From the NCBI RefSeq assembly GCF_057098645.1, contig NZ_CM169472.1: a stretch of DNA of 64,000 nucleotides. One strand, given 5' to 3'. This document shows positions 1 through 52,832 of the stretch, in pieces. A program made the translations under genes and the position numbers. How positions within the stretch are numbered: position 1 is the stretch's first letter; each line of letters begins with the position of its first letter. The notes under the pieces were generated by a model, which did not search any database, was not told where the DNA came from, and saw only the letters and a list, made by a program, of their open reading frames with translations.

Positions 1-428
1 GTCAGTTCAAGAAAACCGCTCATAATCTGCAACAGATGCTGACCAACGCGGCGGGCGTTTTCTGGCTGACTAAACCAGTTGCCAATCAACAACGCCGGTT
101 CGTGACGTCGAATCAATGCCACCAGCGACTGGGTATCGAGAAATTTTTCCTGCACGAACTGACCGAGATTTTCTCCAATCCGGTCTTTATTACGCGGGAT
201 AATCGCCGTATGACGAGAAATGATCGGAATTGGCACGCGGCGAAACAGCGCCACCACCGCAAACCAGTCCGCCAGCGCGCCGACCATCGCCGCTTCAGCA
301 ATCGCCTTCACGCCGCTCACCCAAAAATTGGGCGGCAAAAACAGCGTAACGACAAAGGTAGCAGCGGCGATAAGCAGTAAAGAGAGCGCCAACATTTTGG
401 CGCGTCTGAGTTCAATGAGTTTATTCAT
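1..428 (-). CDS. yjiN: DUF445 inner-membrane protein YjiN, N-terminal part (gene runs off the window start)
   Basis: Continuous minus-strand frame from an ATG near 426-428 to the window edge, translating [30 protein letters not shown]...; absent from the ORF track because no stop lies inside the window. Identity from recalled YjiN sequence and its position next to mdtM. Confidence 0.6.
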
Positions 429-468
429 AACGTTAAGAATAGAGCCTGACGGCAGGATCGCGCAAAAA

Positions 469-1701
469 TCACCGCTCCTCCGCCAGCTCGGCAGCCTGAT
501 GTTGGCGCACGCGATTAAGCAATCCGGCCAGGGTGAAAACGACGATAACGCCCGCCACAACGGCTAACAGATGAAACGGCAAGCGACCGCCGTTAAACCA
601 CAGCCAGCGGCCAATTTCGACCGAGACAGACATCACCATCAGGATCACCATATTCAGCGATGCGGAGACGGTCCCTTTCGGTAAGTTATTGGAAAACAGC
701 GTAAAGCGGAATAAGGTCGGGAAGATCAAACCAATCCCGAAAGCATACAGACTGGTGCCCAGCACCGACCACAGCCAGACGTGCGGTGACAGCAGATTGC
801 CGATAATCAACAGCGCGAGGCCGACCAGTTGAATGGGTACGGCACGCCAGATAAAGCGCGGTTCGGTCGGATCTTTAACGAAACGCGCCACGACGGCATT
901 CGCGACAATCACCGCGCCGAACACCGGAACCTGTGTCCAGGCGAACTGCGAAGTTGTTAAGCCGCCCGCGTCGATCAGGATCACCGGCGAGACAGCCACC
1001 CAACTCATCATTGGGATATAGCTTAAAGAGATGGTTGCTGCGCCAAAGAGGAACAGCCGATTGCAAAAGACATTACGAAAATCGCGTAATACGCTTTTGG
1101 CGCTAAACGGAACCGCGCCGCGCTTCACCGTCTCTGGCATCGCCAGCAGTAAGCCAACAAATGAGATAAAACCCATAACCGCAATGATGGCAAAAAGGAC
1201 TTTCCAGTGCACAAAGTGCATCAGAGCTGCGCCGGAAAGCGGGCCAATAATCGGCGCAATCAGTACGATGGAGGTGATAATCGCCATCAACTTGATCCCT
1301 TTTGTCTGTCCGAACGCCTCCTGCACCGTGACATAACCAACGGTAGCAATAAAACAGATACTGGTGCCCTGAATTGCACGCGCGATAAGAAACTGTGTCA
1401 TAGACGTTGTGAACATTGTCGCAGCGCAGGCAAGGGTAAAAATGAGCGCCCCGGTAATCAGCACTGGCCTGCGGCCAATCCTGTCGGAAAGTGGCCCCAG
1501 CAGCCACTGTAACGCCATACCGCCAGCGAGATAGAGACTGACGGCAGCAGGGGCCAGACTGACATCGGCATTAAAATCACGGACCACATTAATGATCCCC
1601 GGCTGGATCAGATCCGTCGAAAGATAGGCGGCAAAGTCATACAAAATCAACGCCATCGGGAAAAACAGCGTAGCGGCATGGCGGGCAAAAAAACGTGGCA
1701 T
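469..1701 (-). CDS. mdtM: MFS multidrug efflux transporter MdtM (YjiO)
   Basis: ORF 469..1710; translation from internal Met [43 protein letters not shown]... matches MdtM; 410 aa from this start. Confidence 0.85.
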
Positions 1702-2167
1702 AACAAACAACTCCTTGTCCGGAGAACCCCAACGGGGAAAACGAAATTCAATACCGTCGGTAATGACGAAAGGCAGGCGAGAAGGACAAATGTACTGAAT
1801 TTCATGTAATCAACCACACTGCCTGTGAACACACAGACAGAGAAATACCTTCTGACTCCAGGTCAGAATGTATAACGATTACAAATAGTCATCAGCACAT
1901 TACACCTCTTTAATTGATGGGTTGCATAGAAAATATACACCTTAAGTGTAATTAAAATTTGCGGTTAATCAAAAGAGCGCGGTGGAAAGGGGAATATCTG
2001 CCGGGTACAGGAAATGTAAAACGCGAGCCTGTTTCCGGAAAAATGTATCGTTTGCAGAGGAACAAAAATAGCCTGGAAAGCGCCTCGGGGAACGGAAAAT
2101 AGCCAGGTGAGAATGGTTTTGTTAGTCGCTAAAGTCGGGCCATCTTATCTACAGGTGACGGATCGCC

Positions 2168-3112
2168 ATGACAAACTTCACGACCAGCACGCCGCATGAC
2201 GCATTATTTAAGTCCTTTCTCACGCACCCTGACACCGCGCGGGATTTTATGGAGATCCACTTACCCAAAGATTTACGTGAACTGTGAGATCTCGACAGCT
2301 TAAAACTGGAATCCGCCAGCTTTGTCGATGAAAAATTGCGGGCGCTACACTCCGATATTCTGTGGTCGGTAGAGACCCGTGAAGGTGATGGCTATATCTA
2401 TGTGGTGATTGAACATCAGAGCCGTGAGGATATTCATATAGCCTTTCGCCTGATGCGCTATTCCATGGCGGTGATGCAGCGCCATATCGAGCATGATAAA
2501 CGCCGGCCGTTACCGCTGGTCATCCCGATGCTGTTTTATCACGGTAGCCGTAGTCCTTATCCCTGGTCCCTGTGCTGGCTGGACGCATTTGCCGACCCGA
2601 CTACTGCACGGAAACTTTATACTGCAGCGTTCCCGCTGGTGGATGTCACTGTCGTGCCAGACGACGAGATTGTGCAGCACCGCAGAGTCGCCCTGTTGGA
2701 GTTGATCCAAAAGCATATTCGCCAGCGCGATCTAATGGGGCTTATTGATCAACTGGCAGTATTACTGGTTACAGGGTGCGCTAATGACAGCCAGATAACC
2801 GCGCTGTTAAATTACATTTTACTGGCTGGCGATGAAGCGAGTTTTAAAGAGTTTATCAGCGAACTAACCAGTCGAATGCCACAACACAGGGAGCGAATAA
2901 TGACGATTGCAGAGCGAATTCATAATGATGGATGGCTGTTAGGGATGGTAAAGGGGAAAGAAGAAGGGGAACAACGCCTCCTTAGATTGCTTTTGCAGAA
3001 CGGTGCGGATCCTGAATGGATACAACGATATACTGGACTTTCGGCAGAGCAAATGCAGGCATTAGAGCAACCCTTGCCTGAAAGCAAGCGCGATCCATGG
3101 ATCGAGTACTAA
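2168..3112 (+). pseudogene. rpnD: Rpn-family recombination-promoting nuclease (RpnD, yjiP/yjiQ), interrupted by in-frame TGA at 2285..2287
   Basis: ATG at 2168 gives [39 protein letters not shown] then TGA; same frame continues into ORF 2336..3112 (…[26 protein letters not shown]…), typical Rpn/transposase_31 family. K-12 carries the same locus as a pseudogene. Confidence 0.7.
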
Positions 3113-5458: not shown

Positions 5459-7999
5459 ATGAAAAATAGAAATCGTATGATCGTGAACTGTGTTACTGCT
5501 TCCCTGATGTATTATTGGAGCTTACCTGCACTGGCTGAGCAGTCGTCAAGTGAGATAAAGATTGTTCGCGATGAATACGGCATGCCGCATATTTATGCCA
5601 ATGATACATGGCACCTATTTTATGGCTATGGCTATGTAGTAGCACAAGATCGCCTTTTTCAGATGGAAATGGCACGTCGCAGTACTCAAGGGACTGTCGC
5701 GGAAGTGCTTGGCAAAGATTTTGTGAAATTTGATAAAGATATCCGTCGTAACTACTGGCCGGATGCTATCCGGGCGCAAATTGCTGCCCTTTCCCCAGAG
5801 GATATGTCCATTCTGCAAGGCTACGCTGATGGAATGAATGCCTGGATTGATAAGGTAAATACCAATCCAGAGACGCTCTTACCAAAACAGTTTAATACAT
5901 TTGGCTTTACTCCTAAGCGCTGGGAACCGTTTGATGTCGCGATGATATTTGTGGGCACCATGGCAAACCGCTTCTCTGATAGCACTAGCGAAATTGATAA
6001 TCTGGCACTGCTAACGGCTTTAAAAGATAAATATGGTGTATCACAAGGCATGGCGGTATTTAATCAGTTGAAATGGCTGGTAAACCCATCAGCGCCAACC
6101 ACTATTGCCGTACAAGAGAGTAGCTACCCACTTAAATTTAATCAGCAAAACTCGCAAACAGCAGCTCTGTTGCCACGCTACGATTTACCTGCACCAATGC
6201 TTGACCGACCAGCAAAAGGGGCGGATGGCGCACTGCTGGCGTTAACAGCAGGGAAGAACCGGGAAACTATTGCTGCACAATTTGCACAGGGTGGTGCCAA
6301 TGGTCTGGCGGGGTATCCAACGACCAGCAATATGTGGGTGATCGGCAAAAGCAAAGCCCAGGATGCGAAAGCAATCATGGTAAATGGTCCGCAGTTTGGC
6401 TGGTATGCGCCTGCGTATACTTATGGTATTGGTCTGCACGGTGCTGGTTATGATGTCACTGGCAATACACCATTTGCCTATCCTGGGCTGGTTTTTGGTC
6501 ATAATGGTGTGATTTCCTGGGGATCAACGGCAGGTTTCGGCGATGATGTCGATATTTTTGCTGAACGGCTGTCGGCAGAGAAACCAGGCTACTACTTGCA
6601 TAATGGTAAGTGGGTGAAAATGTTAAGCCGTGAAGAAACCATTATGGTGAAAAATGGTCAGGCAGAGACCTTTACTGTCTGGCGCACGGTGCATGGCAAC
6701 ATTATCCAAACTGACCAGACGACACAAACGGCTTACGCTAAATCCCGCGCCTGGGATGGTAAAGAGGTGGCGTCTTTGCTGGCCTGGACTCATCAGATGA
6801 AGGCCAAAAATTGGCAGGAGTGGACACAGCAGGCAGCAAAACAAGCACTGACCATCAACTGGTACTATGCTGATGTGAACGGCAATATTGGTTATGTTCA
6901 TACTGGTGCTTATCCGGATCGTCAATCAGGCCATGATCCGCGATTACCCGTTCCTGGCACGGGAAAATGGGACTGGAAAGGGCTATTGCCTTTTGAAATG
7001 AACCCTAAGGTGTATAACCCCCAGTCGGGATATATTGCTAACTGGAACAATTCTCCCCAAAAAGATTATCCCGCTTCGGATCTGTTTGCCTTTTTGTGGG
7101 GTGGTGCAGATCGCGTTACGGAGATCGACCGACTGCTTGAGCAAAAGCCACGCTTAACTGCTGATCAGGCATGGGATGTTATTCGCCAAACCAGTCGTCA
7201 GGATCTTAACCTGAGGCTTTTTTTACCTACTCTGCAAGCAGCGACATCTGGTTTGACACAGAGCGATCCGCGCCGTCAGTTGGTGGATACATTAACACGT
7301 TGGGATGGCATCAATTTGCTTAATGATGATGGTAAAACCTGGCAGCAGCCAGGCTCTGCCATCCTGAACGTTTGGCTGACCAGTATGTTGAAGCGTACCG
7401 TAGTGGCTGTTGTACCTATGCCATTTGATAAGTGGTACAGCGCCAGTGGCTACGAAACAACCTAGGACGGTCCAACTGGTTCGCTGAATATAAGTGTTGG
7501 AGCAAAAATTTTGTATGAGGCGGTGCAGGGAGACAAATCACCAATCCCACAGGCGGTTGATCTGTTTGCCGGGAAATCACAGCAGGAGGTTGTGTTGGCT
7601 GCGCTGGAAGATACCTGGGAGACTCTTTCCAAACGCTATGGCAATAATGTGAGTAACTGGAAAACACCTGCAATGGCCTTAACGTTCCGGGCAAATAATT
7701 TCTTTGGCGTACCGCAGGCCGCAGCGGAAGAAGCGCGTCATCAGGCGGAGTATCAAAACCGTGGAACAGAAAACGATATGATTGTCTTCTCACCAACGAC
7801 AAGCGATCGTCCGGTGCTTGCCTGGGATGTGGTCGCACCCGGTCAGAGTGGATTTATTGCTCCCGATGGAACAGTTGATAAGCACTATGAAGATCAGCTG
7901 AAAATGTACGAAAATTTTGGTCGTAAGTCGCTCTGGTTAACGAAGCAGGATGTGGAGGCGCATAAGGAGTCGCAGGAAGTGTTGCACGTTCAGAGATAA
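5459..7999 (+). pseudogene. pga: Penicillin G acylase (amidase) precursor gene interrupted by a single in-frame TAG at 7463..7465
   Basis: ORF 5459..7465 (668 aa, [74 protein letters not shown]…) and ORF 7511..7999 (…LHVQR) are in the same frame separated only by TAG; the combined 846 codons match the E. coli penicillin G acylase precursor. Confidence 0.85.
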
Positions 8000-8012: not shown

Positions 8013-8039
8013 CCCTCATATTCAGGAGGAATATGAGGG
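8013..8039. terminator. Stem-loop between convergent pga and yjiA (possible bidirectional terminator)
   Basis: Inverted repeat ccctcatattc-aggagg-aatatgaggg just after the pga stop; the flanking U-run is weak. Confidence 0.3.
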
Positions 8040-34867: not shown

Positions 34868-35302
34868 TCAGGAAATGAAGTTCAGCCCCTGCTTTAACAC
34901 CAGATCGCAGGCTTTGGTTTTCACCTTTTCTGCCAGCGGAGTCGTTCCGATGTTATCCAGATTGAGTTGCTGACCATCTTTGGTTTTCAGCAAACCCTGA
35001 ATACCGTCCAGATAGTTGGTGTCTTCTTTTTGCTCTTCACTGTTCAGGCCCAGCTTTTCCAGCACCTGATTCTTGATGTTTTCGGCATCGGTTACCGACG
35101 CCAGCTTTTGCTTCGCGCAGTATTGCAGAATGCCTGCGGCATTGTTCATGTTATCTGCGCTTAAGGCCTGGTTTCCGCTGCTAAGCAAGTTAGTTAATGA
35201 CGCGAGCGACCAACCGCCTTCCTGTGTCGTGCTGTTTTGGTTGCCAAGTTCGCTGGCGGCAATGGCACAGCACAGAAGATGTTTAACAGTTTTCATCATC
35301 AT
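34868..35302 (-). CDS. yjjA: DUF2501 secreted protein YjjA
   Basis: 144-aa ORF with signal peptide MMMKTVKHLLCCAIAASELG; position upstream of dnaC. Confidence 0.7.
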   Translation of the reverse strand: MMMKTVKHLLCCAIAASELGNQNSTTQEGGWSLASLTNLLSSGNQALSADNMNNAAGILQYCAKQKLASVTDAENIKNQVLEKLGLNSEEQKEDTNYLDGIQGLLKTKDGQQLNLDNIGTTPLAEKVKTKACDLVLKQGLNFIS

Positions 35303-41189: not shown

Positions 41190-41276
41190 TGGTGCGAGGG
41201 GGGGGACTTGAACCCCCACGTCCGTAAGGACACTAACACCTGAAGCTAGCGCGTCTACCAATTCCGCCACCTTCGC
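41190..41276 (-). tRNA. leuV: tRNA-Leu (anticodon CAG), encoded CCA
   Basis: 87-nt unit tggtgcgaggggggggacttgaacccccacgtccgtaaggacactaacacctgaagctagcgcgtctaccaattccgccaccttcgc is the reverse complement of tRNA-Leu(CAG) with long variable arm. Confidence 0.9.
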
Positions 41277-41310
41277 ACAGTCATCTTACTTTTTTTGATA
41301 TCGCCTCGTT

Positions 41311-41397
41311 TGGTGCGAGGGGGGGGACTTGAACCCCCACGTCCGTAAGAACACTAACACCTGAAGCTAGCGCGTCTACCAATTCCGCCACCTTCGC
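41311..41397 (-). tRNA. leuP: tRNA-Leu (anticodon CAG), variant copy with one substitution in the variable arm
   Basis: Second 87-nt copy; differs from the other two at one position (aagaacact vs aaggacact on the plus strand). Confidence 0.9.
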
Positions 41398-41425
41398 CCA
41401 GTGCGAGCAATATCAACGTGGTTTT

Positions 41426-41512
41426 TGGTGCGAGGGGGGGGACTTGAACCCCCACGTCCGTAAGGACACTAACACCTGAAGCTAGCGCGTCTACCAATTC
41501 CGCCACCTTCGC
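41426..41512 (-). tRNA. leuQ: tRNA-Leu (anticodon CAG)
   Basis: Third 87-nt copy, identical to the first. Confidence 0.9.
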
Positions 41513-44852: not shown

Positions 44853-46091
44853 ATGGCGCTGTCTGATGCGTGGTTGCGTTCAGTCGTTGGAAAGGAACGT
44901 GATAAGGTTTTGGTTAAATCCGATCGTGATGGTCTGTCTGTCAGAGTATCACCGAAAGGTCGCGTAGTGTTCCAATATCGTTATCAATGGGCAGGGAAAG
45001 GTGAGCGCCTTGATATCGGAACTTACCCGGCAACTGGATTAAAAGAGGCCAGAGAAGAAGTTATCCGTCTCCGTGGTGAACTCGAGTCAAACCGCAATCC
45101 ACGATTAGTCAAGCAGGCTGAAAAACGAAAAGCTACTGAAGCTATGACGGTAGAGTCTGTGATCCGTGCCTGGTATGAAGCATATTGTGTAAAAAATAAA
45201 AAAGGTTCTGAACAGATACTCCGCTCGTTTGAGCTGCACCTGTTCTCTAAAATCGGGAATATCCCTCACGATGCAGCTACATTGCATGATTGGTTAGAAG
45301 TCCTGGAGCCTCTTAGCACTAAGACTCCAGCAATAGCAGACCGATTGCTAATTAACGCAAAGCAGGCCCATGTCTGGGCGTATAAGAGAAAGCTCATTGA
45401 AACTCGCCCGCTGTCGGATATCACGGGTAAAGATATGGATATCCGTAAAGGTCAGAAGAAACGGTTTCTGACACATGATGAAATTAAAATCCTTTATGCT
45501 GCGATCGATGGTTCTCGAATGGTTCCCAAATACCGGGCCTTCATTAAACTATTGCTGCATTTCGGCTGTCGTAGTTCAGAGCTGATTACTGCCAGGGTGG
45601 ATGATTTTGATTTCATTAATAAGGTATGGACTGTACCGCCAGAACGACATAAGACAGGTGATATAACAGGCGAACCGCTAAAGCGCCCCATTATTGAACC
45701 GGTTGAAGAGCTTATAAAATACGTTATCTCTATGAACAACGGTTCCGATATGCTTTTTACCAAGGAAGGAAGCAAGGAGCCAGTTGGTCGGACATCATTG
45801 CAGTCGCTGCCTTACAATTTAATGCAGTACGCATGGCGGCGTTTGGGGTATCAATTTCCTCATTGGTCTCTTCATGATTTGAGACGAACAGCACGAACAA
45901 ACTTTTCTGATCTTACTGCGCCTCATATTGCTGAAATAATGCTCGGTCATAAACTGCCAGGGGTATGGCAAGTTTATGATAAGAGCGATTATCTAGAAGA
46001 ACAGCGTAAAGCCTATCAGGCATGGTGGGATAGGGTTGATTCGATTCTTACTTACACTAATTTAGGTTCCAACAGACAGCCTATTGAATAA
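44853..46091 (+). CDS. int: Phage tyrosine integrase (P4-type family)
   Basis: 412-aa ORF with catalytic-domain motifs (…HFGCRSSELITARVDDF…, …HDLRRTARTNFSDL…, …GHKLPGVWQVYDKSDYLEEQRK…); first gene inside the junction. Confidence 0.9.
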   Translation: MALSDAWLRSVVGKERDKVLVKSDRDGLSVRVSPKGRVVFQYRYQWAGKGERLDIGTYPATGLKEAREEVIRLRGELESNRNPRLVKQAEKRKATEAMTVESVIRAWYEAYCVKNKKGSEQILRSFELHLFSKIGNIPHDAATLHDWLEVLEPLSTKTPAIADRLLINAKQAHVWAYKRKLIETRPLSDITGKDMDIRKGQKKRFLTHDEIKILYAAIDGSRMVPKYRAFIKLLLHFGCRSSELITARVDDFDFINKVWTVPPERHKTGDITGEPLKRPIIEPVEELIKYVISMNNGSDMLFTKEGSKEPVGRTSLQSLPYNLMQYAWRRLGYQFPHWSLHDLRRTARTNFSDLTAPHIAEIMLGHKLPGVWQVYDKSDYLEEQRKAYQAWWDRVDSILTYTNLGSNRQPIE

Positions 46092-46196
46092 TGAATAGAC
46101 ATACAGAGTAAGAAAATAGTAATGATTCTTGGATTATAATTAACTGGTTGCTGATATTTTGATTTGCCGATTTATGAAGAGACGGTCATTATACTT

Positions 46197-46237
46197 ATAA
46201 AAACACCACTCCTTATCCTTACAGAAATAAGGAGTGG
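46197..46237 (-). terminator. Terminator of the cargo operon (bidirectional, between convergent int and the cargo gene)
   Basis: 11-bp stem ccactccttat / ataaggagtgg with loop ccttacagaa; on the minus strand it is followed by TTTTTATAA. Confidence 0.5.
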
Positions 46238-46243
46238 AAACAG

Positions 46244-47851
46244 TTATGGCTGAGACTCTGGTTTAGCAATCTCGTTTATAAATTTCTTAGCTACAACAGT
46301 CTCATACTTTCTATAATCATCAAGATATTGAACATCTATATGATTTTCGTAGCGAGCATTAAATTTATTTGCAGCCCCTGTTTTATCATCTTTACGTTCA
46401 TCCGTTGGTCTGAAAAATTTATGGTAGCGGCGGGGTGATACCCCCTCAAAATCACAAAATATTACTTTGGAAGATTCTTCGTTCTTTGTTATTGCATCAT
46501 TATGCAGATCAAGAGCAAGACTTTTATCAAATGGCTCTATATATACTACTTTTTTTATTCCAGCTGCGACAATATGCCTTGCACAGTTGTGGCAGGGATA
46601 GGTTGTCGTAAAAAGAATTTTATCTTTAGTATCGCCGTTTTGTTTTCTAGCCATTGATGTAATGACGTCCATTTCAGCATGAATTGATCTGGAGTACTCC
46701 ATTACACTTGATATTTTGCTGTCTTTGTAAATGCCTTCTGCAATATTATCTAATTTGTTTAGAAGTCGTGTTATATTAATATCGGCAACAGTTTGTCCTG
46801 CGGAAATACCTAATACAGTTCTTACTTCGGTTGATAATATGCTTTTTATACGGTCTTTAATTTTTAGCTTGTTTGCATCATTATAACACTTACCACTTTT
46901 GTGAACGCATCGATGATCGTTATCAAAATCATCACTGCTATACAACCCGCCACCAGCTTTAGGTACGTCGTTCTTACCCACGGCAAGCAAATTCCCTTCA
47001 TCATCAAACAGTGCAGCCCCTACTTGACGTGATAAACAAGCTGATTGTAATGATGTTGAAAAGGCAGCATACATACCTTTCTCGTTAAAAGTTGGTGTTA
47101 AACCATTTTTGCCATGAATAAGACCGAAAAACCGATCAATCTTCTTCTTTAATTCACTTTTTTGGCTGAAGTTATTTTTAATAAAAAAATCTGAATCAAG
47201 AATGGTTTCCCCGGTTCTTTGTCCATACGGATCAGAGGATTTATTATCAATATTGATAATTAAATGAAGGTCGTTCTTTGTCGATTCGTCATCAATGAGA
47301 TTCTGAATTCGGTAATCTAAATCGCGCAAAACTCCTAACAAATAGAAATTATGCTGATATATAACTCTGAATAACTCTATTTCTTCCGGCCTTTTGAATT
47401 GATCAATGATGAAGACAGTACCTTTATATTCATCATTATTATAATCATTATTATAATCAATATTATTTTTCTCTGCTGCGATTGCTGCAATAGCAGCTTC
47501 TGCAAGCAACTCATTTTTTTTGTAATGTTTACGAAGTTTATTGGCAATATCCTGGAGTTTTAAATGTCTATTAGCTTGTGTGCTTTCGGATACCTTCAGT
47601 GCTGCTGGCTCAAAATATAATGGGTTTTCCATAAGCGCACTTATGCGGATGTGTACAACATTATACCCCCATTCTTTGGATATCTCTTCGATAATTTTGT
47701 TTATCGTTCTCATGCCACATCCAACATATCCACACAATCCAAGATAAATATCTTTTGATTGTCGTGAATTCACAATCTCAAGTGATGATGCCGATGTTGA
47801 GCCTTTTTTTTCATTCAGCTTTTGTGGAGTTTTTTTTGCTGCTTCAGCCAT
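46244..47851 (-). CDS. Fusion protein: N-terminal degenerate P-loop kinase-like domain + C-terminal zinc-dependent deoxycytidylate/cytidine deaminase domain; candidate antiphage nucleotide-depletion enzyme
   Basis: 535-aa ORF. C-terminal half has the CDA-fold motifs …RQVGAALFDDEGNLLAVGKNDVP…, …SIHAEMDVITSMA… and …TYPCHNCARHIVAAGIKKVVYIEPF… (H-A-E / P-C-x-x-C). N-terminal half has a glycine-rich loop DIYLGLCGYVGCGMRT and a hydrophobic strand followed by Asp (TVFIIDQF). AT-rich; lies between int and xis. Confidence 0.6.
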   Translation of the reverse strand: MAEAAKKTPQKLNEKKGSTSASSLEIVNSRQSKDIYLGLCGYVGCGMRTINKIIEEISKEWGYNVVHIRISALMENPLYFEPAALKVSESTQANRHLKLQDIANKLRKHYKKNELLAEAAIAAIAAEKNNIDYNNDYNNDEYKGTVFIIDQFKRPEEIELFRVIYQHNFYLLGVLRDLDYRIQNLIDDESTKNDLHLIINIDNKSSDPYGQRTGETILDSDFFIKNNFSQKSELKKKIDRFFGLIHGKNGLTPTFNEKGMYAAFSTSLQSACLSRQVGAALFDDEGNLLAVGKNDVPKAGGGLYSSDDFDNDHRCVHKSGKCYNDANKLKIKDRIKSILSTEVRTVLGISAGQTVADINITRLLNKLDNIAEGIYKDSKISSVMEYSRSIHAEMDVITSMARKQNGDTKDKILFTTTYPCHNCARHIVAAGIKKVVYIEPFDKSLALDLHNDAITKNEESSKVIFCDFEGVSPRRYHKFFRPTDERKDDKTGAANKFNARYENHIDVQYLDDYRKYETVVAKKFINEIAKPESQP

Positions 47852-47861
47852 TGCTAATTAC

Positions 47862-48047
47862 CTAGTCGAAAACTATATCAGTATTTATTATTTCAAAAAA
47901 TGCATCAAGAATTTCTTTATTTTTCTTTTTACTTTCAAATGAAATGACATTATCTTGATTAAATGTTGTTAATTCAATGCAGATAGAATCAACCTGATCA
48001 TTGGCGGCGATGCTCGATTCTATTTCATTAAATGCTATTACATTCAT
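47862..48047 (-). CDS. Small acidic hypothetical protein co-oriented with and 10 nt upstream of the deaminase gene
   Basis: 61-aa ORF MNVIAFNEIESSIAANDQVDSICIELTTFNQDNVISFESKKKNKEILDAFFEIINTDIVFD with ATG start; same AT-rich composition as the downstream gene; weak Shine-Dalgarno. Confidence 0.35.
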   Translation of the reverse strand: MNVIAFNEIESSIAANDQVDSICIELTTFNQDNVISFESKKKNKEILDAFFEIINTDIVFD

Positions 48048-48391
48048 TTATCTTATCCAAACATAATAAAAAACCATATGGCCTTTAGTGTACAACAAAA
48101 CCATACTCTTTCCCCTCATTTTAGAGGGGGAAGTGTGGTCCACATCATGTTTTTTCCCACCCATGAAAATGTTCACCTAGGCTGGTGATGCATTTTATGT
48201 ACATCAACTCTTTGAGTTGAATCATTATTTTAGTATTTTTTCTATCATTGTGTAAATGTCTTCGTTTCAATACATCATGCTTGGGGAGCGGTCCCCGTTT
48301 CCTGATAATTAATGCTTGTGGATAGCAACGTCCGTGCCTGTATCGCTCAGACAGACGCTTACCGTGCCATAGACGTGTCTGTTCACATACG

Positions 48392-48586
48392 TCATTCAAT
48401 AACTCCTGCAAACCTGTAAATCTTGCGTGAAGCCCATTTATTTGGGCATGATTTAATATCAGGATCTGGAAAATCAGGCCTGTACTTCTGGCCAGTTCTC
48501 CGGTTTACGCTGTTCCAGCGAAGAACTGTCGATACTGAAACGCCACAGAAGTCGGCGACTTGTTTAGTTGTCATTAAGTTGTTCAT
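48392..48586 (-). CDS. xis: Excisionase / AlpA-family DNA-binding protein
   Basis: 64-aa ORF MNNLMTTKQVADFCGVSVSTVLRWNSVNRRTGQKYRPDFPDP… (winged-helix excisionase signature). Confidence 0.7.
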   Translation of the reverse strand: MNNLMTTKQVADFCGVSVSTVLRWNSVNRRTGQKYRPDFPDPDIKSCPNKWASRKIYRFAGVIE

Positions 48587-49206
48587 TACTTCACCTCCTG
48601 CGGCGGTTCCGGTAGCGGCATCCAGTGGGTTACTTTCGATGCCGGTTCTTCTCCATTGTCAGTAACTGCCCACCATTTGTTTCTCGAACAATCATAATAC
48701 CCTTCGAAGGTATCGCACTCAGTCCAGCCGTAAGACTTACCCCGACACCAAACATACTGTTTATCGTTCGGCATTCGCTCACTACAGCTTATCCAACCAT
48801 CCGGAGTTACCGGAGAGTTGCCCGACAGCTTGTTCAACTTGTAAGTCTGGCTTACAGGTTTGGCACCATGAAGCATGGTGGCGCGGCAGGCGTTCCAGCC
48901 TTCATCAAAACCGACTATGCCATTATTTAAAGACGGACGAGCATCTGGCACCACCAGTACTGGCTTGGCTATATATAGCGGCTGAACATACCAGCCCTTT
49001 GATAACCAACTGTCAGCAATGTTTTTGCTCCTGGTTATTGCCGGAATACCTAAGCCATTGTCTGAATGCAGCCATGCCACCGGCTCCTCTTCCAGCGATG
49101 CCAGAGCAATTTCATAAGCACGGCGCTCAATATCGTCTCGAACCTCTAGGCTGCTGATTCGTTCTTTGATTTCTTTAATCAGTTCTTTATTGGTAAATGT
49201 GGTCAT
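48586..49206 (-). CDS. Prophage early protein (DUF551 / YfdT-like)
   Basis: 206-aa ORF, Cys/Trp-rich C-terminal half (…WISCSERMPNDKQYVWCRGKSYGWTECDTFEGYYDCSRNKWW…); stop/start overlap with neighbours. Confidence 0.5.
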   Translation of the reverse strand: MTTFTNKELIKEIKERISSLEVRDDIERRAYEIALASLEEEPVAWLHSDNGLGIPAITRSKNIADSWLSKGWYVQPLYIAKPVLVVPDARPSLNNGIVGFDEGWNACRATMLHGAKPVSQTYKLNKLSGNSPVTPDGWISCSERMPNDKQYVWCRGKSYGWTECDTFEGYYDCSRNKWWAVTDNGEEPASKVTHWMPLPEPPQEVK

Positions 49207-49568
49207 TATGCTCCAGCCTCCGGCGCTTTGGGTATTACTGCCCAGTGAGTGATATTGAAGTTTTCAAGGTCCCCGACCTGAAATGTCCACTGCCATTCTC
49301 CGGTTTCTTTTTGTCCCCAGGTGTACCAGAGAGAACGCCAGCCAATCAGCCAGCCTTCTCCGTTAGCATCAAATAACAGAACACTTTCATTTGCTGGTGG
49401 CAGTTCAGCTGACACTGGTATTATTTTGTTTTCCAGTGCCGCACATTTAGCTTCAAGCGCGTCGAATTTACGTACCAGGTACTCAGCATTTGTTTCGTTC
49501 ACTTTCAGATCTCGCGGTACACATTTCCCGCGAAGAAACCCTTCCATTTCGAAAACATTCATGCGCAT
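49206..49568 (-). CDS. Prophage early protein (YfdS-like)
   Basis: 120-aa ORF in an overlapping operon arrangement. Confidence 0.5.
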   Translation of the reverse strand: MRMNVFEMEGFLRGKCVPRDLKVNETNAEYLVRKFDALEAKCAALENKIIPVSAELPPANESVLLFDANGEGWLIGWRSLWYTWGQKETGEWQWTFQVGDLENFNITHWAVIPKAPEAGA

Positions 49569-50095
49569 TTGCGTAACTCCGATAATTCGTTAAAGCGTTC
49601 CATAAACATCCCGTAGGCATGGCCTGGAGCCAGTGGAATCACGTTGATCATCTCTGTTGCCGGGATACCTTCCAGCACAGGCCAGAAAGAGCCATCATCA
49701 AGCCCGAGATCGCGGCGTTCGGTTGCCAGCATGATGAGATCGGCATATTTCACGGGTGTACTCATAACCGGGGGTAACCCGTATTTCTCACGGATTACGG
49801 CGTCTATTTTTTCTTCCATCCGTTTATAGTCAGGAAGAAGGCGTTTCAGTGGAGCCGGGATGTCCTGGCAATACGCTTCTGTTGCATCATGCATTAACGC
49901 TTCAAAAGCAAATTCCTGCGGTACCAGTTTGCTGCAAAGCACCGCATGTTGGGCGACGCTGTAGAAGTGTGAAAGATGACCGGCAAAGCGACAGATATTT
50001 GAAAGGGAAACTGCGATATCGTTAATCACGATGTCGTCTTTATTTATCCTGTCATAATAAAAATGCTTCCCGGAAAAAGTTTTAATAAATGACAT
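49559..50095 (-). CDS. HD-domain phosphohydrolase, YfbR/YfdR-like 5'-deoxynucleotidase
   Basis: ORF 49559..50122; from MSFIKT… 178 aa; HD motif context (…NICRFAGHLSHFYSVAQHAVLCS…, …HDATEAYCQDIP…). Confidence 0.7.
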   Translation of the reverse strand: MSFIKTFSGKHFYYDRINKDDIVINDIAVSLSNICRFAGHLSHFYSVAQHAVLCSKLVPQEFAFEALMHDATEAYCQDIPAPLKRLLPDYKRMEEKIDAVIREKYGLPPVMSTPVKYADLIMLATERRDLGLDDGSFWPVLEGIPATEMINVIPLAPGHAYGMFMERFNELSELRKCA

Positions 50096-50222
50096 TTTGT
50101 TCTCCACGTATATGCGCTGCACCGCGCTGAATTTTGGTTAAAGAAAACCCTCGCCATCAGGCGATTATTGAGTCAATTATGTTTCCATAAATGCCCCCGC
50201 AGGGGCATTTGCAGTAAGGAAA

Positions 50223-51047
50223 TCAGGCGGTAAAAGTACCAATAAAGGTTTCTACTTTGCTGTCTTTGAGTTTCTCAACAAGCAGATCACGAAATTCGTT
50301 AGCCATTTCTTCCTGCACTGCTTCCAGCTGAATAATGCGCAGAACCAGTACAGGACGATCGCCAGTGATAATGCTGAGGCGTAATTTAAACGGACGTTCT
50401 TGCAGGCCTTCAAACGGAACGCATTTAAATTCAAATGCCACTGGCATAATGTCTTTGGTCTTCGCTTCGACAGATTCCATCAGGGAGCGTTTGCCGCTGA
50501 AGTCATTATCTTCAAAATCAGCGGTCTGGTTTGCTTCAATCGTGATTTTACGGACTGCCGCAGCCGCTTTTGTTGCCTGAATGGCGTCACCATTAGCATC
50601 AAAGCCCACAAGGTAGTCGGCCCAGTCTTCAATCCATTCTGCCAGTGACTTCTGGGAGTTACGCTCGCCGTTAACAGACAACAGGGCAGAGAACGGTGCT
50701 GTCTTTTTCAGTTTGAGAGTGGCGGTGTTATCTGCGTGACCTGGTTCATCAATAGTACCCAGGTTAAGCACACTGACGGCACGCATATTATCAGCATCGA
50801 TAAAGCAGCGGGTGCCTTCATCTGCAAGATCTTTAGAATAACGGGTAAAATCATCGATGCTGGCAGTGGAAAGCGCGCCACGGAAACGGAAGCGATTTAA
50901 ATTAAATTTTTCCAGATCATGAATGCGGAAATTCTCAGGCAATGCCACAGCATCGGCACCAATCTTACTGATAATTTCATTAACACCCTGAGCAGAAATA
51001 AGGGCATGGATTTGATTAATTGCGGTTGCGTCTAAGTTCTGAGACAT
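50223..51047 (-). CDS. Prophage protein, YfdQ-like (DUF2303)
   Basis: 274-aa [51 protein letters not shown]…; length and position match the CPS-53 yfdQ-type gene. Confidence 0.55.
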
Positions 51048-51112
51048 AATAAGTCCTCACTATATAAAGATATTCAGTGATGAGATAAATAATCAGTTAA
51101 TTAAGAACGATA

Positions 51113-51475
51113 TTAATGACCTGCTGCGCGTAGTTTTCCGTCAGGTTCACCGGCAAGAGTCAGTAATTGTCCCTGGTCTTCCTGCAGAATAGTCAGGCGA
51201 CCACCGCGATTGACATACATCGGCGTTTCGGTGGTGTCTTCTTCGGAAATTTTCCCGCGGTTAGTCGGGCGAACATATGAGAGTTTGTGTTTGATTTTCA
51301 CACGGTTCTCATCAAATGGTTCGATTTCCAGGTTGAGTGAGACCTTACCTTTGGTTTTCGTGTTCATCACACCGGAAGCGACTTCACTGAGAACTGCGCC
51401 GATTTTGGTTTCAAATACGCCGCCGTCCAGCTCCCCGATAAATGCCTGCACATCAGTACTGCGTTCGCTAGCCAT
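51113..51475 (-). CDS. Prophage protein, YfdP-like; first gene of the early-left operon
   Basis: Likely start at ATG (MASERSTDVQAFIGELDGGVF…) preceded by AGGAG; the ORF-track start at 51706 is a TTG and the intervening translation looks non-coding. Confidence 0.5.
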   Translation of the reverse strand: MASERSTDVQAFIGELDGGVFETKIGAVLSEVASGVMNTKTKGKVSLNLEIEPFDENRVKIKHKLSYVRPTNRGKISEEDTTETPMYVNRGGRLTILQEDQGQLLTLAGEPDGKLRAAGH

Positions 51476-52075
51476 TTTGCTGCTCCTCATCATATCGACC
51501 CTGCAAGGTCGGTTGGTTTCTCCACAAAACAGAGAAGAACACCTGCGGTGGCAGCCGCCCGGATGGATTGGGTTATGAGCCCGTCGTCCGGTGATGCTCT
51601 TCTCTGTTTTGTAAAAAGAGCGGTACCAGCCGGAAGCAAGTGTACAAACTGGTACCGCCAAAGCAGTGGCTGTTGTGGTGGGCTTGTCACTCAGGCGTAT
51701 GGTCAACCTGACAATCCGGTGTCCTCAACGGGGAAAGAGTAACCCCGCCATACTTACCGCCGCGCCATTTCGCGGATTACCACAACGCTGAGAGCACTTA
51801 GCCAGTTACAGCACCACACTTTGTCGCGGCTCCATAAATGCCCTCATCGTTGCACCCTGGTCTCTTCCCAGGCGTCAAACCGAATCGCCACGCTGGTTAG
51901 GCGTCTTATCAGCATCATCATTGACTTGCACATTCCGGCTACCTGGTTTGTTTGCCCGAGCAAGGAGTGGATTGTCCCCTTTAACGTCCCCAGACCGCTA
52001 ACGACGCATGTGCCATACGCCGTGTTACAACCAAATTTTGTTTAATCTTGCCTGTGCTGTGTTTCTTTTAGATAC

Positions 52076-52104
52076 ATTATGTATCCCAAGGGTACATTGT
52101 CAAG
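52076..52104 (-). promoter_or_regulatory. Candidate pL-type early-left promoter with overlapping operator
   Basis: On the minus strand TTGACA (52099..52104), 17-nt spacer, ATAATG (52076..52081); the spacer contains a GTACC…GGaTAC operator-like half-site pair. Confidence 0.45.
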
Positions 52105-52105
52105 T

Positions 52106-52129
52106 ATAAAAAAACCTGCCGAAGCAGGT
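52106..52129 (-). terminator. Rho-independent terminator downstream of cI
   Basis: cctgccgaagcagg hairpin flanked by an A-run (U-run on the cI transcript). Confidence 0.55.
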
Positions 52130-52141
52130 TATAAATATTGA

Positions 52142-52816
52142 TTAGGCCTTTATTATGTATCTTCTTGGTTTTCCTGAGAAAATCACTGTACCAATTATAG
52201 AGCAATTACCGTTGATCTTAATGTAAGGTTCAGGCCAGTTTGGGTTTAATGCTTTGAGGTAACGCTGTGTTCCATCTTCTATCAACCGCTTGAAGGTGGT
52301 TTCGCCTGTATCGTGCATCAATGCAATAACGTCGTCACCGTGGCAGGCAGGGACTTCAGGATCAACAAAAATCATGTCTCCCGGGCGGTACTCATCAATC
52401 ATTGAATCACCAATCACCCGCAAGATATAAGTCATTTCGCCACAGGGTACAGGGCAGGGGTAAGTTTCTGCTGTGCTCAAATCAACCTCAGAATAGCCAA
52501 CTTCTTTCCATGCTCCGGCCTGTACCCATGATATGACAGGGACTAACGTTATTTGTTTGTTAGTGATTGAAACATCAGGTTTTTTTGTGATGTTCGTGGT
52601 CTGGTGTTCTTGATCAAGCCATCCGACAGGCAGGTCGAAACATTTTTCGATGTGCCGCGCCATGCTGTCACCGATATTTTTAGTAGCACCATCTCCCATA
52701 AACCTGCTGGTCTGGGTTGGCTCGCGATCAATCATGGTGGCAAAGGAAGAATTCCCGCCAACACCATCTCTCAGTTTTCTGGCGTTAGACCGCCGGATGT
52801 CATGGACTGTTTTCAT
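52142..52816 (-). CDS. cI: Prophage repressor, cI-like (N-terminal DNA-binding domain + C-terminal S24 LexA-type peptidase)
   Basis: 224-aa ORF; C-terminal …LRVIGDSMIDEYRPGDMIFVDPEVPACHGDDVIALMHDTGETTFKRL… with Ser and Lys catalytic dyad context. Confidence 0.8.
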   Translation of the reverse strand: MKTVHDIRRSNARKLRDGVGGNSSFATMIDREPTQTSRFMGDGATKNIGDSMARHIEKCFDLPVGWLDQEHQTTNITKKPDVSITNKQITLVPVISWVQAGAWKEVGYSEVDLSTAETYPCPVPCGEMTYILRVIGDSMIDEYRPGDMIFVDPEVPACHGDDVIALMHDTGETTFKRLIEDGTQRYLKALNPNWPEPYIKINGNCSIIGTVIFSGKPRRYIIKA

Positions 52817-52832
52817 AAAGAAATTAAAACCT

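Follow-up and report, generated by a model that had tools for sequence, protein, structure and literature searches.

Penicillin G acylase gene pga interrupted by an amber codon at a former Dcm site in an Escherichia coli O145:H28 sub-lineage: a probable natural loss-of-function allele

An in-frame TAG separates two open reading frames that together correspond to the gene for penicillin G acylase (PGA), which raises the question whether the gene has been lost in this strain, whether the stop is tolerated in some way, or whether it exists in one sequence record only. The window, i.e. the whole stretch of 64,000 nucleotides that was analyzed, matches E. coli O145:H28-type chromosomes in pga and its surroundings, and its genes follow the order yjiN-mdtM-rpn-yjiR-yjiS-pga-yjiA-yjiX-btsT-hpa cluster-tsr and onward. 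From the evidence given below it is very probable that pga is represented here by a natural loss-of-function allele of an accessory gene, which belongs to a sub-lineage of O145:H28 and resulted from a single C-to-T change.

The interrupted frame and its predicted product

The TAG is the sole internal stop (codon 669) in a frame of 846 codons at 5459-7999. It closes a first ORF of 668 codons, and the 15 codons past it continue directly into a second ORF in the same frame (7511..7999), which comprises 162 codons and begins with TTG. When the Gln is restored in place of the stop, the frame aligns end to end with the solved chains of E. coli PGA (1gk9_B, 1e3a and 7reo, E = 0), whereby the alpha part 27-235 and the beta part 290-846 are covered and the latter corresponds to residues 1-557 of 1gk9_B. 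The translation displays the canonical precursor layout with a signal peptide of 26 aa, an alpha subunit of 209 aa, a spacer of 54 aa and a beta subunit of 557 residues; the beta chain begins with SNMWVIGK at residue 290, and its first residue is the nucleophile Ser (beta1). The stop occupies the position of Gln669, which is Gln380 of the beta subunit, and Gln is found at beta380 in 1gk9_B and the related PDB chains. The coordinates of all these parts are collected in Table 1. The sequence-only reading had claimed that a single in-frame TAG splits pga into two same-frame ORFs, that about 180 beta residues are thereby lost, and that the catalytic Ser of beta lies far upstream; the layout agrees with it in each respect, with 178 residues missing from the C-terminus and the Ser at residue 290 compared with the stop at 669.

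Table 1. Parts of the interrupted pga gene, with positions in the window
Feature	Position	Strand	Basis
pga 5' part	5459..7465	+	ORF list, translation, layout check, PDB alpha/beta alignment
signal peptide	5459-5536	+	layout check and PDB alignment
alpha subunit	5537-6163	+	layout check and PDB alignment
spacer	6164-6325	+	layout check and PDB alignment
beta residues 1-379	6326-7462	+	layout check and PDB alignment
amber codon TAG for CAG (Gln669 = beta-Gln380)	7463..7465	+	RM13514, C325 and other O145:H28 genes; PDB chains
former Dcm site, CCAGG in all relatives, CTAGG in the window	7462..7466	.	sequence comparison
pga 3' remainder, predicted to be untranslated (beta381-557 and TAA)	7466..7999	+	translation

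The assignment to the PGA family is based on the PDB chains and on Pfam, where both fragments matched PF01804 (Ntn hydrolase); among the NCBIfam models a PGA-specific one was not found, and just a weak, sub-threshold match to PvdQ was returned. A chance pattern of ORFs was ruled out by the PF01804 matches on both fragments and by the DNA being 99.96% identical to intact annotated genes. Compared with the known E. coli enzyme (pac/pga; the ATCC 11105 enzyme, PDB 1PNK/1GK9), the gene, the locus, the precursor layout and Ser-beta1 are the same, the yjiS-pga-yjiA locus beside the hpa cluster is shared, and the solved alpha and beta chains are near-identical. However, the frame in the window stops at beta380 and not at beta557, hence the first ORF does not encode a complete beta subunit and the formation of one is impossible. 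Near the N-terminus of the alpha subunit a repeat of the hexamer TATGGC, which codes for YGYGY, is located at 5615-5626; its copy number varies in frame among strains (-6, +6, +12 and more), which marks it as a slippage-prone spot.

The C-to-T transition turns codon 669 from CAG (Gln, beta380) into TAG, where translation should end. The product would be a precursor of 668 residues with signal peptide, alpha subunit, spacer, Ser-beta1 and beta residues 1-379, whereas the last 178 residues would be missing. [quoted passage not shown] In the alignment to PDB chains, homologues including distant PGAs align through residues ~833-846, and all solved homologues cover the lost region; therefore, this region belongs to the fold and is no dispensable tail. 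Maturation moreover requires a correctly folded precursor for autoproteolysis, and PGA precursors are prone to misfolding and proteolysis (PMC2642769). Given the conservation of the C-terminal region across all solved homologues and the need of autoproteolysis for a folded precursor, the truncated protein would most likely lack activity and be broken down, and no mature enzyme would be formed. In the O145 allele the TAG is the sole lesion, and further decay, which would speak independently for a loss of function, is not seen. C-terminal deletions may block the processing of PGA, a point that forms no part of the present argument. The downstream gene yjiA is convergent with pga; therefore, no polarity is expected and yjiA should be unaffected. 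A terminator scan 3' of pga returned no canonical terminator, and an inverted repeat at 8013-8039 after the gene is visible by eye only.

Carriers, origin and recurrence of the amber codon

All 23 closest complete genomes have CAG at codon 669 and an annotated intact pga of 846 aa (WP_022581255.1), from which the window differs in this gene only at 7463, with C in the relatives and T in the window. This comparison bears out the expectation of the sequence-only reading that the reference codon is CAG (Gln) and that a single C-to-T difference would emerge from an alignment: RM13514 and other O145:H28 genes as well as the Gln at beta380 in the PDB chains are in line with it, and neither a stop nor a natural gene end occurs at this position in the references. 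Over 35 kb, 12 positions separate the window from C325, the closest complete genome, and because of these differences the window represents a distinct strain of the same clade. The T at 7463 is one of seven SNPs that are private to the window versus five close genomes; these seven form an ordinary mixture of synonymous, missense and intergenic changes. Three of them (22326, 22348 and 22464) cluster within 140 bp of the divergent hpa promoter region, between hpaG and hpaR; this cluster may reflect either a small patch of recombination or variation in regulation.

The sequence-only reading had also allowed for a sequencing error or a deliberate alteration, with the strain truly carrying CAG. Such an explanation finds some footing in the absence of the T on the O145 haplotype from complete RefSeq genomes and in the location of the site within a Dcm motif, since methylated motifs can give systematic miscalls on some platforms. 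It is nevertheless highly improbable in view of the carriers. The exact 668-aa product occurs on 24 or more contigs (25 index blocks) that belong to different projects and accessions, comprising NCBI GCA_029357705.1 as well as Logan and ENA runs, and on each of these contigs the 668-aa ORF is followed by the 162-aa ORF, called as a separate gene, in the same gene neighborhood; the cluster table lists 13 contigs for each fragment, whereas the intact allele has at least 1000 of them. Four carriers were compared with the window, and 7463 is T in all of them, two being identical to the window over their length and the other two differing at 7096 and/or 13999. Furthermore, the allele is restricted to a coherent clade, as the carriers share the markers 1757T, 8881G, 9356T and 15512C, which they have in common with C325. 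Only one of the 105 CCWGG motifs differs between the window and C325, and in L011 one of 50 is altered; therefore, a systematic, methylation-related basecalling error does not apply. Because the carriers keep the T yet differ from the window elsewhere, the amber allele is inherited in an O145:H28 sub-lineage that has diversified since. The locus thereby shows the features of a unitary pseudogene, being disrupted in comparison with intact orthologues at the same locus, with the lesion present in several independent isolates.

Regarding the origin of the allele, position 7463 corresponds to the inner, presumably methylated C of CCAGG, which stands in the context AAC-CCAGG-AC in every relative and reads CTAGG in the window, and the direction from C to T is polarised by all relatives. 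CCWGG is a known hotspot of C-to-T changes through deamination of 5-methylcytosine, which is countered by Vsr very-short-patch repair (PMC2715241, PMC13250602). Nearly all complete E. coli genomes (5367 of 5426) carry dcm-vsr, and 9 of the 334 possible single-base nonsense routes in pga are of the Dcm inner-C type. Since Dcm would methylate precisely the cytosine that was mutated in this CCAGG, the most likely origin of the amber mutation would be a spontaneous deamination of 5-methylcytosine at 7463 that escaped very-short-patch repair. As a side effect, the mutation creates CCTAGG, an AvrII/BlnI site, at 7461-7466, hence carriers would gain a restriction site; BlnI is a second enzyme in PFGE typing of Shiga-toxin-producing E. 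coli.

The same stop is not confined to O145:H28. A search of the complete genomes with a 61-mer of the TAG allele gave no match, because a synonymous polymorphism that is common at 7471 masked the carriers; with 31-mers for either 7471 haplotype, two TAG genomes came to light that had been hidden from the 61-mer. With 7471T, the TAG 31-mer matched none of the complete genomes; with 7471C it matched two, the strains 90-3040 and 2013C-3492, compared with 1038 complete genomes for the CAG 31-mer with 7471C and 33 for CAG in the exact O145 context. RefSeq flags pga of both strains as a pseudogene ('frameshifted; internal stop'), hence this type of lesion is already known from another lineage. The change is identical, from CAG to TAG in codon 669 at the same Dcm site, but the haplotype differs from that of O145 at 7410 and 7411 (52 bp upstream), 7471 (8 bp downstream), 7570, 7577 and other positions. 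Moreover, the two strains carry a 12-bp expansion of the TATGGC repeat and 1-2 bp deletions at 6127 and 7101-2, whereas the TAG is the only lesion of the allele in the window. The different haplotype and the extra indels indicate that the 90-3040-type TAG is an independent and older event. When the 162-aa fragment was looked up on other haplotypes, a look-up that detects only breaks in the 90 bp from 7421 to 7510, TAG-669 appeared again in L020 and L022, the background of which is ECOR29-like, and 34 index blocks with this stop were of the 90-3040 type. Apart from the O145 haplotype, TAG-669 is thus carried by two or more pga haplotypes, altogether by two to three backgrounds; the ECOR29-like and the 90-3040-type alleles could have a recombination tract of at most 520 bp in common.

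Activity despite the stop, selection and mutational bias

The conclusion of the sequence-only reading, that pga is a pseudogene unless the stop is suppressed, is upheld by the amber codon in place of Gln and the loss of ~180 beta residues, and two ways remain by which an active enzyme might still arise. The amber codon might be read through, either via a suppressor tRNA of the supE/supF kind or by an efficient natural readthrough inserting Gln. In favor of this, near-cognate tRNA-Gln misreads UAG at a low level, and the O145 and ECOR29-like TAG alleles are free of further inactivating lesions. However, the background readthrough in E. coli amounts to around one percent at most, and natural isolates seldom carry suppressor alleles. 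In the tRNA content of the 64-kb window no suppressor was found; its only tRNAs are three tandem genes for tRNA-Leu(CAG) (leuQPV-type, 41190-41512, - strand), none of which is a suppressor. Furthermore, the stop is not conserved, being absent from about 1071 of about 1073 pga-bearing complete genomes, which have CAG instead. This speaks against programmed readthrough, and decoding as pyrrolysine or another recoding was set aside for the same reason. Strains of the 90-3040 lineage carry frameshifts in addition to this TAG, which shows that the gene is not maintained there. Altogether, a functional pga by readthrough appears very unlikely. Even less probable, to the point that it can practically be dismissed, is an active enzyme put together from the 668-aa chain and a 162-aa chain that is initiated anew at TTG 7511. 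A Shine-Dalgarno-like GGAG indeed lies 8 nt upstream of this TTG, and gene callers emit the 162-aa ORF, but the identical GGAG-TTG occurs in intact genes and is thus not an adaptation to the split. Moreover, the restart omits residues 669-684 including the substrate loop beta384-388, the C-terminal fragment would lack a signal peptide, and the split is not conserved among orthologues.

A loss of function therefore remains the preferred reading, and it can be asked whether the loss was neutral and whether codon 669 is especially prone to it. The gene is accessory in E. coli, being present in 1074 of 5426 complete genomes, and at least 72 changes between presence and absence (gain/loss) of pac have been estimated across the species (PMC10769857). 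This turnover would fit a scenario in which the inactivation of pga was selected in some lineages, giving parallel knock-outs near codon 669, and so would the diversity of the lesions. Besides TAG-669 on two to three backgrounds, codon 659 was changed from TGG to TAG (7434) on two backgrounds and also to TGA (7435), and single-base indels were found as a deletion at 7469 and insertions at 7431 and 7097; these other, independent lesions were compiled from pga of L016, L021, L023, L024, L025, L026, L027, L028 and L029. In L026, a 431-aa ORF had been predicted to reflect a Dcm-site event at 6753, but the prediction failed: the change is TGG to TGA at 6754, and the surrounding sequence of that haplotype is no Dcm site. 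Nevertheless, the survey is biased towards breaks in the 90-bp interval mentioned above, carriers account for only a small share of the O145 allele (13-24 contigs versus at least 1000), and the frequent neutral decay of a conditionally useful gene gives the same pattern, hence an adaptive loss is unlikely. Somewhat more room, albeit still doubtful, can be given to codon 669 as a genuine mutational hotspot at which the Dcm-methylated CAG is repeatedly turned into TAG in unrelated lineages, possibly aided by selection against PGA. Amber hotspots at Dcm sites have classically been described in lacI, and the present case resembles them in the change from CCAGG to CTAGG, the in-frame CAG to TAG, the affected inner cytosine and the occurrence in independent lineages. 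It differs in that natural genomes and not a mutation assay are concerned, and that an excess in rate over non-Dcm G:C-to-A:T sites is only putative in pga. The interval 7421-7510 offers 12 nonsense routes, three of which are transitions; since all three transitions have been seen and the non-Dcm codon 659 (TGG to TAG/TGA) also recurs, a generic G:C-to-A:T bias could explain the recurrence. Hence, a Dcm hotspot at codon 669 is suggestive and fits the data but is not proven. If true, pga could serve as a convenient natural reporter of gene loss that is driven by 5-methylcytosine in populations in the wild.

Practical implications and other variation in the window

Overall, the allele is an ordinary, recent and recurrent loss-of-function allele, i.e. 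an ordinary young pseudogene, and it has little import for biology at large. It indicates that an accessory scavenging enzyme disappeared recently, via a textbook mutation, from one sub-lineage of Shiga-toxin-producing E. coli O145:H28, and the repeated amber codon at a Dcm site may serve as a small natural illustration of methylation-driven mutation. For practical purposes, annotation pipelines split pga into two ORFs in these isolates, which should be merged and flagged as one pseudogene. Moreover, the SNP at 7463 is a clean marker of the O145:H28 sub-lineage and also brings with it the AvrII/BlnI site.

Some further differences were noticed elsewhere in the window. In yjjA (- strand), 63 bp that are present in RM13514, C325, RM9872, 12E115 and 16003 are missing at the junction 35251-35260. 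The loss represents an in-frame deletion between short direct repeats (GCTGGCGGC); Tandem Repeats Finder reported no repeat at this indel. YjjA thereby loses residues 17-37, among them the last part of the signal peptide with its VHA/A cleavage site, and the deletion is probably a second lineage-specific lesion. The gene for an Rpn-family recombination-promoting nuclease (2168-3112, + strand) contains an in-frame TGA at 2285-2287; it is a RefSeq pseudogene with internal stop in all O145:H28 relatives examined and is intact in PapM-32-1 and 90-3040. Finally, the part of the window from ~46050 to 64000, past the integrase region near yjjG, diverges from RM13514 and contains a different prophage or integrative element, the best matches of which (97-99% identity) come from non-O145 strains; the annotation of these matches includes an anti-phage dCTP deaminase, a DNA methyltransferase and DUF968.
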